Made by a program: the position numbers and the translations under genes. The notes below the pieces were generated by a model. It was not told where the DNA came from. It was given only the letters and a program-made list of their open reading frames with translations, and did no database searches. This document shows, piece after piece, positions 577-9,423 of a stretch of 18,713 nt of DNA; position 1 is the stretch's first letter, and each line of letters begins with the position of its first letter. Location of the stretch: IMG/VR virus record IMGVR_UViG_2663762939_000014; one strand, written 5' to 3'. Origin of the DNA: a virus (Duplodnaviria > Heunggongvirae > Uroviricota > Caudoviricetes).

Positions 577-1838
577 TCCACAACCTCCCCAAGCTGCGCA
601 TCTGTTAGCTCTTTATGCCAGAGACGAAAATTCCTCACATGCCCAAATAAATGGCGTAATCCTGCTGTAGTTTGTCCACCAATGCGAATGGTTGCTGTAC
701 TCCGGATATATTCCCATTTGGTTTTAGTTTCGCTGCTTAACTTACCGTTACTGACTACACATGTGGACCGTTCGGACTTTACCCGCATACCAATAAGCAT
801 TTTTTCCAGCCCGGCATTTTCATTTATTCGTCGGTCTGAACCACCTATATCGCAATACGGAAAACCGTCGTACCCACCTGATGAACCAAACCCCATTACG
901 ATCCCCGCATCTGCCTGATGCCGGTATGTGTCAAAAACACGCGGTGCTGCATTTGGCGTTTTATACCAGTTCTTATGTACCTCACAAAGAACCGTAAAAG
1001 GAAGATTATAAAGATTATTCTTAATCGGAACTGTAACCATATCGCTTGCCCGCGTTACCGGTGCCGTCCCCGTAACAATAAAAGATGATGCGCCTGTACC
1101 AGCCTCAATCTGTGGAGTGGTTACATCGAGATAATCCCCTGATGCAACCATCTGCCCTGTATCCGGAGAATACTGGACAAAACCACCAACCGTATTTTCT
1201 GTTGTATCTGCTTTTAATGTAGCCTCAAAAAATATCCAGCCAGTTGCATCATCCTTAACAGACCTTGCTGTAACACGGCTTGTCTGACCTGTCTTGCTAA
1301 TTATGCGGGTGGTAAGGTTCAGGTTTGCTGCTCCTATTGATGTCCTTACCTCCCCATCATAATGTTCAAATAAAATACGAACGGCGATATTATCAACTTC
1401 ACTTTTTACCCGACAGGATATAGTTACATGCTTTTCGTCCCCTGAAGTATCAACCCCTCCGGTACTCGAATACAGCCCGATAATGGTATGCGCTTTACTT
1501 GTACCAACAATCGAATCCTGTACGACAAACCGGCCATAATTAAACCCGAAACTATCTGTGCCTGTTTCTGTAACGTCCAGTGAAGTTGACTTATTCCACT
1601 TCGAAGGGTCTGTACTGTTCGGGAAGAAGTTCGTTCTTTGCCCCTCAATAAGCAGGCCATCACACTCAAATCGTGGCTCATTAATTTCCGCCGTTTTCAG
1701 TTCGCCAGATTTGTTGATATATGTTGCCGTTGATGCGCGACTGAAATTAACCTGTTTATCACTGGCAACCTGAACCACATTATCACCAATCTTCACTTTT
1801 TTATAACCCGGTGGATTTGCCCCTATATTTCCAGACAT
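573..1838 (-). pseudogene. stf: C-terminal fragment of IS2-disrupted side tail fibre gene (distal receptor-binding region); native sequence is 573-1806, the first 9 codons of the track ORF (MSGNIGANP) are IS2-derived
   Basis: Native reading frame continues from the N-terminal fragment once IS2 plus one TSD copy is removed; ORF start ATG lies inside the IS2 terminal repeat; C-terminal end FGHVRNFRLWHKELTDAQL resembles a concanavalin/LamG-like lectin fold (inference). Confidence 0.7.
1807..1811. repeat. IS2 target-site duplication copy (CCCGG)
   Basis: Identical 5-bp CCCGG immediately flanking both IS2 ends (1807-1811 and 3143-3147). Confidence 0.85.
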
Positions 1839-2728
1839 CTGTTATCACTTAACCCATTACAAGCCCGCTGCCGCAGATATTCCCGTGGCGAGCGATAACC
1901 CAGCGCACTATGCGGATGCCATTCGTTATAATGCTCGAACGCCTCTGCAAGGTTCTTTGCTGCCGTTAACCCGTCTGGTTTGGGCATGATACTGATGTAG
2001 TCACGCTTTATCGTTTTCACGAAGCTCTCTGCTATTCCGTTACTCTCCGGACTCCGCACCGCCGTGTTCTTCGGTTCAAGTCCCAACATCCGGGCGAACT
2101 GGCGTGTTTCATTAGCCCGGTAGCATGAACCATTATCCGTCAGCCACTCCACTGGAGACGACGGAAGATCGTTGCCGAAGCGGCGTTCCACCGCTCCCAG
2201 CATGACGTCCTGTACTGTTTCACTGTTGAAGCCGCCGGTAGTGACCGCCCAGTGCAGTGCCTCACGATCACAGCAGTCCAGCGCGAACGTGACACGCAGT
2301 CTCTCTCCGTTATCACAGCAGAACTCGAACCCGTCAGAGCACCATCGCTGATTGCTTTCTTTCACGGCCACTCTGCCTGTATGTGCCCGTTTCGATGGCG
2401 GTACAGCAGGTTTTCGCTCAAGCAACAGCGCATTCTGGCGCATGATCCGGTAAACACGTTTGGCATTGATCGCAGGCATACCATCAAGTTCTGCCTGTCT
2501 GCGAAGCAGCGCCCATACCCGACGATAACCATACGTTGGCAGCTCTCCGATAACATGGTGTATACGGAGAAGCACATCCGTATCATCAGTGTGACGACTG
2601 CGGCGGCCATCCATCCAGTCATCGGTTCGTCTGAGAATGACGTGCAACTGCGCACGCGACACCCGGAGACAACGGCTGACTAAGCTTACTCCCCATCCCC
2701 GGGCAATAAGGGCGCGTGCGCTATCCAC
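1823..2728 (-). CDS. insD: IS2 transposase OrfB (InsD, 301 aa), normally made as an OrfAB fusion by -1 frameshifting
   Basis: Protein matches IS2 InsD from memory (DDE integrase-like catalytic region); overlaps orfA at the A AAA AAG slippery site. Confidence 0.9.
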
Positions 2729-3051
2729 TTTTTTGCCCGTCCATATTCAACGGCTTCTTTGAGGAGTTCATTTTCCATCGTTTTCTTGCCGAGCAGGCGC
2801 TGGAGTTCTTTAATCTGCTTCATGGCGGCAGCAAGTTCAGAGGCAGGAACAACCTGTTCTCCGGCGGCGACAGCAGTAAGACTTCCTTCCTGGTATTGCT
2901 TACGCCAGAGAAATAACTGGCTGGCTGCTACACCATGTTGCCGGGCAACGAGGGAGACCGTCATCCCCGGTTCAAAGCTCTGCTGAACAATTGCGATCTT
3001 TTCCTGTGTGGTACGCCGTCTGCGTTTCTCCGGCCCTAAGACATCAATCAT
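2686..3051 (-). CDS. insC: IS2 OrfA (InsC, 121 aa, helix-turn-helix regulator)
   Basis: ATG at 3049-3051 gives [24 protein letters not shown]..., matching IS2 InsC; the track ORF start at 3096 is an upstream extension. Confidence 0.88.
2728..2734 (-). other. IS2 programmed -1 ribosomal frameshift heptamer A AAA AAG (orfA to orfAB)
   Basis: Plus strand CTTTTTT at 2728-2734 is AAAAAAG on the minus strand, in the orfA/orfB overlap (OrfA ...AKKW...). Confidence 0.75.
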
Positions 3052-3126
3052 CTGTTCTCCAATGACTAGTCTAAAAACTAGTATTAAGACTATCACTTAT
3101 TTAAGTGATATTGGTTGTCTGGAGAT

Positions 3127-3981
3127 TCAGGGGGCCAGTCTACCCGGAGAATAGCCCGTAATCATATCCAGCGAATCATTAAAGGGTATCCACACATCCG
3201 GCAGCGGCTGTAAAACATATCTGTACGGCTCTGCTGTCTGGTTTGCGTATTCTCTGGCAGCATCTTCACTTGCTTTTGCTGCCGTCTGGCTTGCTGCCGA
3301 TGCTTTCGCCGAGTTCGCCGCCGCTGTTTCGCTCACCTTTGCGTTGGCTTCACTGTCTTTGGCATTCGTCTCACTGGTTTTCGCTGCCGTCTGGCTGGAT
3401 TTTGCGTTTTTTTCGCTGGCCTTTGTGGCTGTCTCGCTATTTTTCGCGCTGGTTTCTGATTTTTTGGCTGCTGTCGCGGAGTTTGCCGATGCAGTCTGCG
3501 AGGCCGCTGCCGCCTGTGCGCTGTTAGCTGCATTCGTTTCTGAGGTTTTCGCCGCGTTCTTCGATGATGTCGCTGCCGTTTCGGATTTCTTTGCCGCCGC
3601 TGCACTCTGTGATGACGCTCCGGCATGACGTGCCACTTCATTCACCATCAGCTCAAAACGGCGCAGTGCCTCCGGACGAACATCATCCTCCGTCATGGCA
3701 CCGAGAAAATCATTCAGCGTACCTGGTCTGGAACCTTCATAGACGGTAATGGTCCCGGCATGTGAAGGTGGAAAACCTTCAACCAGCAGGGTGACGCTGT
3801 ACTGGCCATACTCAACATCCATGCTGTAACGCCCGGCTTCATCCGGATTTTCAGAGGCCACCGTGTTCACCAGTACCGTGGTGCTGTTACGCTTTGCCTT
3901 CAGTTGAATAGTGCAGTTCTGTATTGGTTTTCCCGCACCATCTTTCAGCACACCTGAGATTTTTACTGCTGCCATATCCAC
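3127..3981 (-). pseudogene. stf: N-terminal fragment of IS2-disrupted side tail fibre gene (Stf-like anchor plus Ala/Ser/Thr-rich repeats); likely true start is the ATG at 3973-3975
   Basis: N-terminus (M)AAVKISGVLKDGAGKPIQNCTIQLKAKRNSTT...EGFPPSHAGTITVYE matches the lambda/Rac Stf N-terminus; last residues (RLAP) and stop are read from IS2; GGAG upstream of the ATG at 3975. Confidence 0.8.
3300..3640 (-). repeat. Imperfect tandem coding repeats (Ala/Ser/Thr-rich, SETNAK-like motifs) in the tail fibre shaft
   Basis: Repeated GCTGCCGTCTGGCT / TTTTCGC-type units on the plus strand; encodes KKSETAATSSKNAAKTSETNAANSA... low-complexity repeats. Confidence 0.6.
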
Positions 3982-4039: not shown

Positions 4040-4639
4040 TCAGAACTTATAACCGACACCCACGATGAAACCGTCAGTGCGCCAGTCACCACTACCGGAG
4101 CCTTCATAAGCAATATCAATGGCCACGGATTCGGTCGGGTTAAACTGCACGCCAGCCCCCCACGCCAGAGACGTGTTGCTGTGGCGACCGTCATCACTTC
4201 CGGTCAGCACATCGTGCGTTTTCCCCTTGTTGTCAGTTACGCGGAGATAATCCCCGGAGAAAGTCGACACACGGCTGTAAGCCACACCCACCATCGCATA
4301 CGCGCTGAACCATTCATTCACGCGTACAGACGGCCCCGCCATCACGCTGAACCAGCGGTTACGCACGGAATCTTCATGCCAGCGGGTATCGCTGTAGTGC
4401 GTTTTTTGCTCATCCTCAGCATTGGCATAACTGAAGGACGTAATCAGCCCCAGCGCGTCCGTAAACTCATAACGGTATTTCACGTTAATCCCGTTCAGAT
4501 TATCGCTGCCGGGAGCGTTCGTACGGGCATGAAGATACCCCGCGCTCAGTGTGGACTGATGTTCAGACGCCCATGCAGGCGCACCGGATACGGACAGACA
4601 GATGGCTGCGGACAAAATGGCTGCACATAATTTACGCAT
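4040..4639 (-). CDS. lom: Lom, Ail/Lom-family outer membrane beta-barrel protein (199 aa)
   Basis: Near-identical over most of its length to lambda Lom as I recall it (MRKL.AAILSAAICL.VSGAPAWASEHQSTLSAGYLHA...GFIVGVGYKF); signal peptide present. Confidence 0.93.
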   Translation of the reverse strand: MRKLCAAILSAAICLSVSGAPAWASEHQSTLSAGYLHARTNAPGSDNLNGINVKYRYEFTDALGLITSFSYANAEDEQKTHYSDTRWHEDSVRNRWFSVMAGPSVRVNEWFSAYAMVGVAYSRVSTFSGDYLRVTDNKGKTHDVLTGSDDGRHSNTSLAWGAGVQFNPTESVAIDIAYEGSGSGDWRTDGFIVGVGYKF

Positions 4640-4706: not shown

Positions 4707-7700
4707 TCAGCTAATCGTGATGCCTGCAGTGGCTTTCTTCATCACAACAACCAGCAAATCGCTGATACTTGCTGTGGGATACCAGCCATTTACCCACCAT
4801 GCTGATACAGAAAACTCCAGCGTCATGTCGCCGCGACCAGCAGGCATATCAATAACACCACTGTAAACCAGCGTATTATCCATCGCGGTACGGTTATAAA
4901 TTTCAGCACCGTTTTTCTTCACTATCAGGCGGCATGACGAATAAGTATCGCTGTTCTCCCGCTCATGTCTGGCACCGCTGAAAGCCACCGCCGGAATAAC
5001 AATCTGCCGGTTAAACGGCTGATCGTCATAAACCCTGACGGTAATGGTTCCTGATGGCCAACGCTTCGGTGCACGGGAGTCACGAGGGAAAGCCTTACCC
5101 ACTGTTTTAACGAGATCGCCTTCAATCTGGTTTGCAGACAGTTTCCCTCTGATGACACAGTTCTTGTTAATGGTGACATTATTGAGCGTGCCGGTATTCG
5201 CCGTGATGGCTCCACTGATATCCGCATTGCGGGCTGTCAGCCTGCCATCCGGCGTCAGGGAAAACGTCGGAGGATTGCCGGATGACGTGATGCTCACCGC
5301 AAACAGTCGCTTCAGGAACACGTCGTTCATGAACAGCTGATTCCCCTGCGCCACAAACAGCGGCGTGGTGTTGCCGTTCTCCGGGGTAATCATCGCAATG
5401 CGATCGGCCTGCAGCAGAATGTTACTCAGGGTCTGACCATCAACATCCTCAATCCCCGCGCCAATCCCGGCCACATAGGGAATACCGTTTTTTGTTTTCT
5501 GCACCTTCAGCATATACATGGCATTCAGCTCATTGCGCGTGTCTGACTGAACCCGCTGGATTTGCTGTATGGTCACGGCCTGGTCACCCAGCTTTTTATC
5601 CGTGGTCGAGGTAATTTCACTCCCTTTTTTATCCACGTACTGGCGGACCTGTGCTATCTGTCGGGCGTTTTCTGACTGCCCCTGGCTGACAGTCTGTGAG
5701 ATTTCACTGCTCACCCGGTCCACTTTCTGGCTCACCTGCGCGATGGCCAGTGTCTGGTCCTCATTCTTTTTCGCAACCAGCTGCGTGAGGCTGTTTTCCG
5801 CCTTCCCGATTTTCCGGGTCACTTCTGCGATATCCGTGTCCATCCGCTGACGGATATCTTCTTCCAGTTGCGTGACCTCCGTACGCAGCGCTGAAGCATC
5901 AATGCGCTCTTTCAGTGCCTGGCCCAGAAGCGTCTCATCTATCAGCCCCCGGAAAATTTCCAGATACCCTTCACCATCATTGCTGGGCTGCCCGCTGGCT
6001 TCCACAAAAGCAGATTTTCCCACCAGGTTGACGCTTCGCACGTAAAACCAGAAATCCGTCCCCGGCTTAATCCGGCTCCCCTGGACAGTCCACTGACTGC
6101 CGGTCCCCAGATAACGGGCAGATTTTTCCACCTGTGCTGTGTTCGTGATGCGTTTTTCTGAGAACCAGAATTCAAACTGCACCGTCGGGTCATACACCGC
6201 CAGCACCGGTACCGCCGTTATCTGAAAATACCCCGGCGTCAGCTCAATGGTGGCGGGTTTTGCAGGCGCGTTAATCCGGAAGGTGGTGGTCGCAGGTTCG
6301 CCCTGCTGGCCGTAGCTGTTAATGGCCCGCACCGTCAGGGTGTATTCCCCCAGTGGCAGGCCGCTGAAACGGTGCTCCGTGTCTGCGGTGATGGCGGTGG
6401 TCACCAGTCTGGCATCCGTTCCCTTACCACTGGTCAGGCGCAGACTGAAGCGCACGCCCTTCACCACCCGCGGCGTGTCCCATTTAGCCTGCGCCAGATA
6501 CTGGCCGTCAGCTGCGCTCACCTCCACCGTCAGGTGCTGCACTGCCGGTGGGATAACGCTGTTCAGGGTGCCTGACTGCGGCTCAAAGCGGGCCCCGTTA
6601 TCCACGATGGCTTCTTTTTCAGGTACGTGCTGCACCGCCGTGATGGCAAAGGTGCCGTCCGTGTTTTCCCGGATGGAGACACAGCGGAACAGGCGACGAC
6701 GCAGTGACGGCAGGGAGAGTCCCCACACACCGTATGTCTCCACACCATCCGGCAGGGTGCTGACCTGTATCCGGTCAGGCGCGGGGTGTGCGGTGATGGC
6801 CACGCTCGCCGGCTTACCGCTGCCGTTAATCAGATTAACAGTGGCCGTGCCGGTCTCCGGCAGTGTCACCTCCCGGTCCAGCGTCAGGGTACGGCTGGCG
6901 GCATCGATGGACAGGACACGTCCGCCGGTCATGGTCCCGGCATAGTCGTTATCACAGATTTCAATGATGTCACCGGGTGTGTGACGCAGCCCCTGTGACC
7001 CGAGCGTGAAATCCACCGTCTGCGTTTCCAGCAGTTCGGTCTTTATCACCCACAGCCCGGCACGGTGGGCCTGACCGCGGCTGGTACAGCCGAACGCGTC
7101 CATCTTCAGCAGGTTGCGTCCGTAGCGCAGTATGGCTTCCGGGTCTTCCACCAGTTCCGTGGAGGTCTGCCAGCCGTTCTGCGGGTCGGTGTAATTCACC
7201 TCCACCGCCGTGTGCCGGTCCTTCAGGGCACTGAAGCTGTAGCGGAAACCCACGCCGTTATCATCCACCACCACATCGCTGCTGGTGTACGGCCACACCA
7301 CATCCGACGGGCGGTCCTGAACGAACGTCAGCGTCTGACCGTTCCATACCGGCATACAGCGCATCGCAGAGCAGAAATCACTGAGAACGTCCCACGCCTT
7401 ACGCTGTTGTGCCAGGTACGCATTAAAGGTCATCCGCAGCTCGGTCCCCCCGAAACCATCCGGGACCGTCTGGTCGCAGTACTGCCCGATGGCATACAGC
7501 GCCCACTTGTCCACATCCGCCGCCCCCAGACGTTTTCCCATGCCGTAGCGCGGGTGAGTCAGCATGTCCCACAGACACCAGGCCGGGTTGTTGCTGTATG
7601 CCGGTTTCAGGCTGCCGTCCCAGATACCACTGTACGTGCGTTTTTCCGGGTCATAGTTTGACGGCACCTGGATGATGCGACCGCGGATATGGTAGTTCAC

Positions 7701-8399
7701 CGTCATCTGCTGGCCGCCGAACTGCTCCGCATCCACCTGCAGCCCCACAATGGCCGTGTTCGGGTAGCACTGTTTCACATCGATGATTTCGGTGTATGAC
7801 GACCACAGCGTCTTATTCTGCAGCTGGTCCGTGGTGCTGTCCGCCGTCTCCCTGACCATCCGGATGTTAAAGGGCCGGGGAGGCAGATTATCCAGAATCA
7901 CCGAGGCCAGGAACTGCGAGGTGGTCTTGCCGTTAATGGTGACATCCTTTTCCGTCACCCAGCGGCCATTACGCTGTAACTGAATCAGAATCCGGACAGA
8001 GGAAGGATTACGGTCGCCCTTTGACGTGGTCTGCACCAGTGACTGCACCCCGAAGGTAACCCGCAGGCGGTCAATGTTCGCGGACGTAATGGTGCGCGTC
8101 ACCGGTTTTGCCTTCGTCACTTCCACGCCCAGTCCGGTTTCAGCTCCGGAGGACTCAAAGCCTTCCGGTGGTGTCTGCTCCTGCTCCCCGGCACGCCAGA
8201 CCGCAGTCACACCGTGTATCACGGGATTACCGTCCGTGTCCGTCAGCGGGGTTTTGTTCACCAGAATACTCTGCAGTCCCTTCACCGGACCTTCTATCGG
8301 TCCCTCACCAATCGCATCAATCACACTCATCATCTGCGTGGATTTGAGATTATCCTTCGCCTCACGAGGCGTGTGTGCCTTACCGCCACCTTTTCCCAT
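4707..8399 (-). CDS. J: Tail tip central fibre / host specificity protein J (1230 aa)
   Basis: Collinear similarity to lambda J from the N-terminus ([19 protein letters not shown]...[14 protein letters not shown]) through the fibronectin-like region; longer than the ~1132-aa lambda J as I recall it, with an extended coiled-coil segment and a divergent C-terminus. Confidence 0.93.
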
Positions 8400-8467
8400 A
8401 CAGCCTTCCCCTGAATAAATTAACCGCCACTTGCCATTCCGTACAGAAGTCGGATATCCTTCGCCCG

Positions 8468-8538
8468 AAAAGCATGAAACACATTTCTGCCATGCTAAAG
8501 AGAAACCCCGGTATCAGCAGATACCGGGGTTTTCTTTC
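8468..8538 (+). ncRNA. Candidate small RNA A in the I-J spacer (weak promoter to hairpin 1)
   Basis: Possible TTGCCA (8431-8436), 18-nt spacer, TATCCT (8455-8460); internal stem AGCATG/CATGCT (8471-8496); 10-bp terminator stem 8506-8515/8520-8529 followed by TTTTCTTTC; no credible ORF. Confidence 0.2.
8506..8538 (+). terminator. Intrinsic-terminator-like hairpin 1 (possibly bidirectional)
   Basis: CCCCGGTATC-AGCA-GATACCGGGG followed by TTTTCTTTC; preceded by AAA so the minus-strand copy is also followed by a short U-run. Confidence 0.5.
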
Positions 8539-8604
8539 ATGCCCACCGATAATCCTGTTGGTTAAAACCGGTAATGGCATAAAAATTCTGAATATCTTCA
8601 CATT

Positions 8605-8632
8605 TTCACAAACTGACTGTGGCGCGTATAAT
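8605..8632 (+). promoter_or_regulatory. Putative sigma70 promoter (TTCACA, 16-nt spacer, TATAAT)
   Basis: -35 TTCACA at 8605-8610 (5/6 to consensus), 16-nt spacer, perfect -10 TATAAT at 8627-8632, in an AT-rich non-coding spacer. Confidence 0.4.
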
Positions 8633-8638
8633 TTCTCT

Positions 8639-8738
8639 GCGTTAATTTTTTTGTCGTGATATAAGAATAATTCCTTACACTTAATCTTCGTAACTCTCCC
8701 GCAGTTCCTGTCCGCGATCACTGCGGGATTTTTTTATT
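8639..8738 (+). ncRNA. Candidate small RNA B in the I-J spacer (about 95-100 nt, antisense to the late operon)
   Basis: Predicted start about 7 nt after the TATAAT; AU-rich body with no ORF; ends in the strong terminator hairpin 8698-8727 plus T7 run. Confidence 0.3.
8698..8736 (+). terminator. Rho-independent terminator (plus strand only)
   Basis: 8-bp GC-rich stem CCCGCAGT (8698-8705) / ACTGCGGG (8720-8727), then seven T at 8729-8735; the minus-strand complement is not followed by a U-tract. Confidence 0.6.
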
Positions 8739-8742
8739 CTTT

Positions 8743-9423
8743 TTACCCCTGCCGCCCGATAACCACGACCTTTCCGCCCCCGCCTTCATCACGGGTGCTG
8801 ATGTCCTGGGATATACGGCGGGAGCCAACCAGCATTTCCCCGTAAGGCACCGGCATCGGGTTCCCCTGGGCAATCATGTTATCCAGTGAGGAAAAGTACG
8901 TGTTCTGTCTGCCGTTATCCGTTGCGCGGTAATCCGGTGTTTTTGCCTTCGGGGCCAGCATCTGGGCCACACCGCCCAGTATCATGCTGGCCCCCAGTGA
9001 AAACAGCATCGTGGTGGCAGAAAAACCGCCGGCACTCAGGGCTGTACCCCATAACACCATCGAGGCACCGGCCGTGAAGAAAGAGCCCACGATGGCTGCC
9101 GCCCCCAGCACAATCTGCAGTCCACCCTTTCCGGCCCCGGCCAGTCGCGGCACAATGTGGATGACCGTTCCCTCACCCAGCTGTTCGTGAAGACGGGCGT
9201 ACACCGCCTCCGGTGCCGTGTCATCACCGGCAATACGTATCTGGTACCAGCCTTCGTTCATCTGACGGCGAAAGCCCGGCATCTGCATCGACAGGGCGCG
9301 AATGGCTTCCGCTGCCGTGTTCACATACAGGCTGAGGCGGCGGCCAAATCGTTGTAAATCCCCGTAAAGGCGGATGCGTGCCAGTGGCGGTGACGCCAGA
9401 CAGAATGCGTTCGTCGTTGCCAT
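8743..9423 (-). CDS. I: Tail tip assembly protein I (226 aa)
   Basis: Similar to lambda I along its length (..ARI.LYGDLQRFGRR..., IHIVPR.AGA, QIVLGAAAI.GSFFTAGA, NTYFSSLDNM.AQGN). Confidence 0.92.
   Translation of the reverse strand: MATTNAFCLASPPLARIRLYGDLQRFGRRLSLYVNTAAEAIRALSMQMPGFRRQMNEGWYQIRIAGDDTAPEAVYARLHEQLGEGTVIHIVPRLAGAGKGGLQIVLGAAAIVGSFFTAGASMVLWGTALSAGGFSATTMLFSLGASMILGGVAQMLAPKAKTPDYRATDNGRQNTYFSSLDNMIAQGNPMPVPYGEMLVGSRRISQDISTRDEGGGGKVVVIGRQG

Follow-up and report, generated by a model that had tools for sequence, protein, structure and literature searches.

A predicted small RNA gene of the PasB/EcOnc22-24 family between tail genes I and J of a lambda-like prophage

The small RNA (sRNA) PasB of enteropathogenic Escherichia coli (EPEC) E2348/69 and the RNAs EcOnc22, EcOnc23 and EcOnc24 of enterohaemorrhagic E. 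coli (EHEC) Sakai are the closest described relatives of a locus that we analysed in IMG/VR virus record IMGVR_UViG_2663762939_000014, an 18,713-nt stretch of Caudoviricetes DNA referred to below as the window. The locus is the gap between the tail genes I and J of a lambda-like prophage. An earlier note on this DNA, made from the sequence alone, had proposed that the gap carries a regulatory RNA gene on the plus strand, and could not say whether it matched any known prophage sRNA. PasB and EcOnc22-24 lie in the same gap and on the same strand, and we consider it very likely that the window carries a member of their family.

PasB is an 83-nt sRNA of prophage PP6, encoded on the minus strand of NC_011601 (1466343-1466261) between E2348C_1436 and E2348C_1437, for which the Northern probe was AATCCCGCAGTGATCGCGGAGCT (PMC8550237, Table S6). 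On Northern blots it appears as a band of the expected size, its stability is Hfq-dependent, with log2 changes of -6.79 and -2.39 upon deletion of hfq, and its longest U tract is seven residues (PMC8550237). In RNA-seq, the baseMean of PasB was 482 in the virulence-activating and 1082 in the non-activating condition, and that of the flanking tail genes of E2348/69 was 4.8 (I) and 15 (J) (PMC8550237). The abundance of PasB while I and J are nearly silent indicates that its synthesis in the lysogen does not depend on the late operon. Ligation and sequencing of interacting RNAs (RIL-seq) recorded 37 interactions of PasB, 30 of them with coding sequences or 5' untranslated regions (5'UTRs), and PasB was the second RNA in 99-100% of its chimeras (PMC8550237). 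The partners are mostly core-genome mRNAs, with accessory-genome partners in less than 2% of PasB chimeric fragments (PMC8550237). The best-supported, with their numbers of chimeric fragments, are E2348C_2648 (71), the napF 5'UTR (70), map (67), yhhX (57), hflX (55) and fabR (50) (PMC8550237, Table S3).

EcOnc22 (Sp15), EcOnc23 (Sp14) and EcOnc24 (Sp11) were described as Hfq peaks from UV cross-linking followed by cDNA analysis (Hfq-CRAC) and listed as homologous (PMC4104026, Table S2). EcOnc22 gives a Northern band of ~85 nt and is destabilised without hfq (PMC4104026), and a 2021 review lists its targets as unknown. Judged by AgvB1, which lies at 1941783-1941835 in the 2014 paper and at 1941920-1941981 in the current record, current Sakai coordinates are ~137-146 nt above those of the 2014 EcOnc table, so that every 2014 EcOnc coordinate needs lifting before use. 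With or without this shift, all three EcOnc coordinates fall inside I-J gaps of NC_002695.2, on the strand opposite the tail genes. With the shift, the EcOnc22 peak appears to cover the PasB-like RNA body in Sp15. EcOnc22-24 are very probably Hfq-dependent and made in the lysogen, as PasB is.

The placement of the window locus in this family is supported by the homology of the gene, its position and its strand. E2348C_1436 and E2348C_1437 are homologues of I and J, PasB lies on the opposite strand in the 240-bp gap between them, and this gap is colinear with window 8583-8742. The promoter regions are identical at 54 of 58 positions (93%), the 3' arm of the terminator together with its U7 tract is identical over 25 nt, and window 8710-8730 agrees with the reverse-complemented PasB Northern probe at 20 of 23 positions. 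Both alleles have a TTCACA-16-TATAAT promoter and a CCCGCAG/CUGCGGG stem followed by U7, with the same order of parts between them: a U-run, an A-R-N run, a C/U-rich core and the terminator. In both, the terminator abuts the stop codon of I (sRNA end 8735 and I stop 8743 in the window; 1466261 and 1466255 in E2348/69).

The resemblance is uneven along the RNA. Identity between the window allele and PasB is 74% over the whole RNA and 72% over the 83-nt form. It drops to 67% in the part of the body that precedes the terminator, as against 95.5% for I and 97.9% for J. The putative seed is UCCUUACACUUAAUCUUC in the window and UCCUUCACAUUGAUCUUC in PasB, a difference at four of the 18 positions, and the terminator loop is 5 nt longer in the window allele. 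The left half of the window gap, a module we call L1, is unrelated to the corresponding module of E2348/69 (L2, ~100 nt). The Sakai sequence and the window allele, 74% identical, can likewise be aligned over promoter region, core and terminator, and the Sakai gaps share the layout with the sRNA 3' end beside the I stop; the Sakai promoter elements, TTCCGG and AATAAT, are weaker than those of the window, and the seed there is UCCAUAACGUUAAUCUUC. The retention of promoter hexamers, terminator stem and RNA core across alleles that are only ~74% identical is beyond chance.

The window allele also has, in its own right, the combination of parts of an Hfq-type sRNA, namely a terminator, a U-tail of at least six residues and an upstream A-R-N element (Table 1). 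The earlier note had pointed to the near-consensus plus-strand promoter and to a strong terminator specific to that strand, and both are present. The promoter matches the consensus at 11 of 12 positions, and a match of at least 11 of 12 on either strand was reached in 60 of 5000 shuffles of the gap. The terminator hairpin, CCCGCAG(U)/(A)CUGCGGG at 8698-8727, lies 65 nt downstream of the promoter. On the minus strand the same hairpin is preceded by an A-run and lacks a U-tail; the terminator is thus specific to the plus strand. The element AAGAAUAAU upstream of it may, judged from its sequence, be contacted by the distal face of Hfq, and A-rich A-R-N runs occupy the equivalent place in other alleles (AACAAAAACAAC in PasB and AAAAAUAAC in Sakai).

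Table 1. Features of the I-J gap and its surroundings, in window coordinates
Feature	Position	Strand	Remarks
I-J gap	8400-8742		343 bp; left module L1 (8400-~8582) and sRNA unit (~8583-8735)
Sigma-70 promoter	8605-8632	+	-35 TTCACA 8605-8610, 16-nt spacer, -10 TATAAT 8627-8632; 11/12 matches
Predicted transcription start	G8639	+	
Predicted sRNA, PasB-family 'allele A'	8639-8735	+	97 nt
Stretch equivalent to the coverage-annotated 83-nt PasB	8654-8735	+	
A-R-N element AAGAAUAAU	8663-8671	+	three A-R-N triplets; read from the sequence
Putative seed UCCUUACACUUAAUCUUC	8672-8689	+	C/U-rich, anti-Shine-Dalgarno-like; unpaired in the family consensus structure
Intrinsic terminator	8698-8735	+	stem 8698-8704/8721-8727, variable loop, U7 8729-8735; ends 7 nt before the I stop codon
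Weak promoter-like site	8431-8460	+	TTGCCA-18-TATCCT; 9/12 matches
Symmetric hairpin, 13 bp	8503-8532	both	AAACCCCGGUAUC/GAUACCGGGGUUU
J Shine-Dalgarno	8405-8412	minus	GGGGAAGG
J start codon	8397-8399	minus	
I stop codon TAA	8743-8745	minus	7 nt past the sRNA 3' end
I	8743-9423	minus	tail gene
J	4707-8399	minus	tail gene
lom	4040-4639	minus	

The position of the seed was derived from PasB. Six PasB chimera regions were tested for their longest perfect helix with the sRNA against 300 shuffles, a test that replaced RNAduplex, whose partner duplexes were long, loop-rich and uninterpretable. The napF sequence UCAAUGUGAAG, which comprises the Shine-Dalgarno sequence and the GUG start, pairs perfectly with PasB nt 39-49 (11 bp), and the sequence AAUGUGAAGGA, with the yijD Shine-Dalgarno at the fabR-yijD junction, pairs perfectly with PasB nt 37-47 (11 bp). 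In neither case was a helix as long found in any of the 300 shuffles, and both complements lie inside the RIL-seq chimera regions. Because these helices fall in the PasB core, we place the seed in the conserved core of the family. The two helices suggest pairing at ribosome-binding sites, the usual route by which such sRNAs repress translation.

The window allele does not share these two helices. Its longest napF and yijD helices are 7-8 bp, no longer than chance would give, and lie elsewhere in the RNA, and those of the Sakai allele and of the variant PasB-2 are likewise of chance length. Since the seed has changed in allele A, a partly different target set is probably to be expected, with the architecture of the family and its Hfq dependence presumably retained. 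We further note that the single C/A difference between PasB and PasB-2 lies inside the napF and yijD helices and cuts them to 6-7 bp; PasB and PasB-2 may differ in targets.

We propose that the host sigma-70 polymerase would start near 8639 in the lysogen and would stop at the U7 terminator, giving an RNA of ~97 nt that is perhaps trimmed to ~82 nt. Hfq would bind and stabilise this RNA through the 3' hairpin and U-tail and the upstream A-R-N run. The single-stranded C/U-rich seed would then pair in trans with Shine-Dalgarno and start-codon regions of host mRNAs, most likely lowering their translation. That 8605-8735 on the plus strand is a self-contained sRNA gene of the PasB/EcOnc22-24 family acting through these steps is, in our judgement, highly probable. 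The suggestion of the earlier note that the gap holds a moron encoding an Hfq-type sRNA of roughly 95-100 nt, expressed in the lysogen, thus gains support from the homology to PasB and EcOnc22-24.

Several points weigh against this interpretation. The predicted 5' end at 8639 precedes by 15 nt the position that corresponds to the 5' end of PasB as drawn from read coverage, and the Northern sizes of 83 and ~85 nt are smaller than the predicted 97-98 nt; the true 5' end may lie 15 nt downstream of 8639 as a result of processing at the U-run (6-9 U across alleles), or the coverage mapping may be imprecise. A long perfect helix was found in only two of the six PasB partners, with the other four at or near chance length. 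The terminator stem is invariant, so that covariation neither supports nor opposes it, and Rfam 15 has no model for the PasB/EcOnc22-24 family. Placing the EcOnc22 peak on the sRNA body, as opposed to further left, depends on a coordinate shift whose calibration point is 0.2-1 Mb distant. For PasB, and in part for EcOnc22, expression, Hfq dependence and trans partners are known; these would extend to the window allele by analogy. Repression by occlusion of ribosome-binding sites is a presumed route for the family as a whole.

The earlier note had described the RNA as antisense to the late operon. As a statement of position this holds: the sRNA is convergent with the tail operon and fully complementary to the I-J intercistronic late mRNA, and the I-J position is fixed in all sRNA alleles. 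The same facts would fit an sRNA that acts mainly in cis on J or on downstream genes, through RNase III cleavage of the duplex or transcriptional interference, or one that is soaked up by late mRNA during lytic growth. The description is nevertheless true of position alone. The predicted RNA overlaps no functional element on the opposite strand, since it ends 7 nt from the coding sequence of I and lies more than 230 nt from the ribosome-binding site of J. PasB accumulates when I and J are almost silent, the RNAs recovered by RIL-seq include no I or J entry, the PasB partners listed are in trans, and phages with the sRNA unit are still inducible, ASU11 for example by mitomycin C. We consider a mainly cis-acting role unlikely; some soaking up of the sRNA by late mRNA during lytic growth is possible.

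A second, about equally doubtful alternative concerns the symmetric hairpin in the left module, which the earlier note had suggested could terminate another short RNA or act in both directions. The hairpin is indeed symmetric, its tails are U-rich on both strands (UUUUCUUUC on the plus strand, UUUCUCUUU on the minus strand), and segments containing it fold at z = -7.3 (plus) and -6.1 (minus). A plus-strand sRNA of ~70 nt could start at the weak promoter at 8431-8460 and end at this hairpin: the plus-strand tail would serve as its terminator, an upstream stem GCAUG...CAUGC gives it an sRNA-like shape, and L1 hardly varies among 1446 genomes. However, this promoter matches at only 9 of 12 positions, a class of site found four times in the 2.4 kb scanned and 1.3 +/- 0.9 times in shuffles, and L1 is too uniform in sequence to be tested. 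Among the RNAs listed by RIL-seq there is no second one from the I-J gap of E2348/69 (PMC8550237).

The comparison with other gaps also argues against a second sRNA. In L2 and in the corresponding Sakai module, L3, a GC-rich hairpin stands at the matching relative place with a U-rich tract only on the tail-gene strand. In the 60-nt I-J gap of lambda, too, a GC-rich hairpin upstream of the J ribosome-binding site is followed by U-rich sequence on that strand only (GAAACCGCCUGCGGGCGGUUUUGUCAUUU). The commonest L3 variant keeps one of the stem positions as a G-U pair on the tail-gene strand, where the other strand has a C-A mismatch, and one locus has a compensating U-A. Because lambda, L2 and L3 have such a hairpin at the matching place, we read that of the window as a tail-gene-strand structure, most likely the form that an ordinary hairpin or terminator preceding J takes in this lineage. 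The lambda hairpin corresponds to it in position and is unrelated in stem sequence; the lambda gap has no sRNA unit, and the window hairpin differs in being symmetric with U-tracts on both strands. Owing to this symmetry it could also stop plus-strand transcripts.

A hairpin upstream of J is thus a feature shared by lambda and the three modules, with no conservation of its sequence, and we know of no described function for it. In lambda late transcription, the Q-modified polymerase would read through such a terminator. In one IMG/VR contig, a stretch of ~46 nt equivalent to ~8487-8533 and lying between TTTCT direct repeats is deleted. The deletion removes the L1 hairpin exactly, which indicates that the hairpin is dispensable for carriage of the element.

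We also considered that the window allele might be an inactive relic, homologous to PasB and giving no functional RNA. Its RNA body is 33% diverged from PasB, and promoter-less relics do exist, as a near-identical body stands behind sodC in prophages of Shiga toxin-producing E. coli (STEC). Yet the window has an intact terminator and U7 as well as an intact promoter, which matches at 11 of 12 positions and shares 93% identity with the active one of PasB, and the allele is 100% conserved across hundreds of genomes though the flanks differ by ~4% from ATCC 25922. A relic is accordingly quite improbable. Least probable is a small protein, encoded by a 113-aa or 66-aa minus-strand or a 94-aa plus-strand open reading frame (ORF): mechanical ORFs exist, two of them crossing the gap (8380-8721, minus; 8375-8659, plus) and one being annotated as a hypothetical protein in phage ASU11, but neither gap-crossing ORF has a Pfam match, they run through the hairpin and the sRNA body, they could not be conserved given that the left module is unrelated in L2 and L3 and that allele indels are not multiples of three, and RefSeq annotates nothing in the gap.

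The distribution of the sRNA unit extends well beyond the window. A scan with the exact promoter pattern matched at least 120 IMG/VR viral contigs and one Escherichia albertii contig, and a one-genome-per-species scan with the same pattern matched only E. albertii. At least five sRNA types are found among viral contigs and E. coli genome loci: the window type A; PasB/PasB-2, which differ from one another at a single-nucleotide polymorphism at position 27 (bioRxiv 10.64898/2026.05.13.724894); a shorter variant; a hybrid; and the Sakai type. The -35 and -10 hexamers are kept wherever the promoter is present, and are weaker in the Sakai and CUPS_TF types. Also kept across types are the first RNA bases, the U-run, the A-R-N-rich run, the C/U-rich core UCCUUnnnnUUrAUCUUC and the terminator stem, while the remaining RNA sequence and the loops vary. 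In an RNAalifold analysis of 12 diverse alleles the terminator is the only conserved structure, with its seven stem pairs invariant and its loops variable; the folds of the 5' body differ between alleles and give no ground for proposing a shared 5' structure.

Allele A is present at 99% identity or more in 613 E. coli records (complete genomes), or ~11%. The PasB type at 95% or more occurs in 925 complete E. coli records, only 34 of which reach 99% identity to E2348/69, and the Sakai type at 95% or more occurs in 535 such records. Of complete E. coli genomes, ~27% carry all 343 bp of the gap and ~31% carry part of it. The whole gap is 100% identical in many genomes of extraintestinal pathogenic E. 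coli (ExPEC); strains with exactly this gap include CE10 and VR50, and it is 100% identical between the window and ATCC 25922, in which the flanking tail genes are ~4% different. Judged from these sequences, an identical gap between diverged flanks suggests either strong constraint or a recent sweep.

From J to the sRNA promoter, the gap is occupied by one of three unrelated modules, L1 in the window (about 180-205 nt, with an extra ~100 nt at 8400-8500), L2 in E2348/69 (about 100 nt) and L3 in Sakai. Of 1451 E. coli records, 1442 have L1 at 99% identity or more, and L1 has no more distant relatives. These modules combine freely with sRNA alleles. The difference between the window and phage ASU11, like that between the window and E2348/69, is concentrated in the RNA, with 98.7% identity over the left module and promoter and 67% over the RNA body. 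The earlier note had proposed comparing the I-J junction across prophages to see whether the insert behaves as a unit. The sRNA unit is shared across prophages; the left module and the sRNA allele reassort independently.

One tentative reading, which we regard as possible and somewhat less likely than its negation, is that the I-J gap is a seed-exchange cassette, in which a conserved promoter and terminator would frame a fast-diverging or swapped pairing region. Each prophage lineage would then supply a different Hfq-dependent regulator, and allele A would control its own set of core mRNAs in extraintestinal E. coli. The four lineages on which this reading draws are allele A in ExPEC, PasB/PasB-2, the Sakai type and a sodC-linked type.

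The sodC-linked arrangement is found in many STEC prophages (for example in E. coli O157:H7 E32511 and 2014C-3655), where the I-J gap holds a sodC moron, for a Cu/Zn superoxide dismutase, on the sRNA strand. In these gaps, at the place equivalent to window 8583-8742, the sodC 3' end and its own terminator hairpin replace the sRNA promoter, and an allele-A-like sRNA body (~94% identical) persists with its terminator between sodC and I. This body could be a relic or a read-through product.

A recent survey found pasB on 1107 chromosomes, with variants that differ by 'a few nucleotides', using blastn at word size 28 and query coverage above 75% (bioRxiv 10.64898/2026.05.13.724894). The longest exact word common to the window allele and PasB is 25 nt, so that the window allele has no exact word of at least 28 nt in common with the 83-nt PasB query. 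For this reason, going by the stated method of the survey, allele A was probably left uncounted. The survey's 1107 chromosomes compare in magnitude with our 925 PasB-type records, among which the 613 allele-A records are not counted.

The earlier note had also proposed an Rfam search. Rfam 15, at the gathering threshold and at E up to 10, gave no meaningful match in the window, and the homology came instead from the published PasB and EcOnc loci; a full-text literature search with fragments of the sRNA sequence matched no paper. AgvB and AsxR (RF02702, RF02703) were rejected as candidates on account of their location, the PR' moron site, and because no match to their models occurs in the window, the AgvB model reaching 96.5 bits on a Sakai control. 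Like the PasB family, they are Hfq-dependent lambdoid-prophage sRNAs that are expressed in the lysogen and have a conserved 3' part and a variable pairing region. They differ from the window sRNA in lying downstream of PR' at the Q/stx moron site, in their length of 51-60 nt and in being mRNA-target mimics that sequester core sRNAs. HnrS (EcOnc10-12, PLoS Pathog 2026) was rejected as a different 66-nt sRNA at another site. In Sakai Sp10, Rfam STnc100 (145.8 bits) is found directly beside AgvB and convergent with it.

The surroundings of the gap are those of the late region of a lambda-like prophage, with the window read on the strand opposite its capsid and tail genes. From right to left these run through the capsid and tail genes to M, L, K, I, J, lom and a tail-fibre gene. 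The earlier note gave the extent of the AT-rich I-J gap exactly (GC content 41.7%, as against 55% for the whole window) and put the lambda gap at about 60 nt, which is the length measured (I end 15444, J start 15505). The gap carries no annotation in any RefSeq genome that has the sequence. An IS2 element (IS3 family) at window ~1815-3140, with orfA at 2686-3096 and orfB at 1823-2728, appears to interrupt the tail-fibre gene; its ends we take to be IS2 terminal repeats. Only the N-terminal domain (3127-3981) of the tail-fibre gene beside lom remains, and the prophage is therefore probably defective for side tail fibres.

The locus does not represent a new kind of system. The kind of sRNA is already known from PasB and EcOnc22-24, and what is new is the changed pairing region of the window allele. 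The analysis ties EcOnc22-24 (EHEC, 2014) and PasB (EPEC, 2021) into one family at one prophage position, and allows DNA without RefSeq annotation to be named and assigned a testable function. It also marks the I-J gap as a recurrent moron site, which holds an sRNA or sodC. The napF and yijD pairings of PasB should not be extended to strains like ATCC 25922, since the seed of the common ExPEC allele is different.

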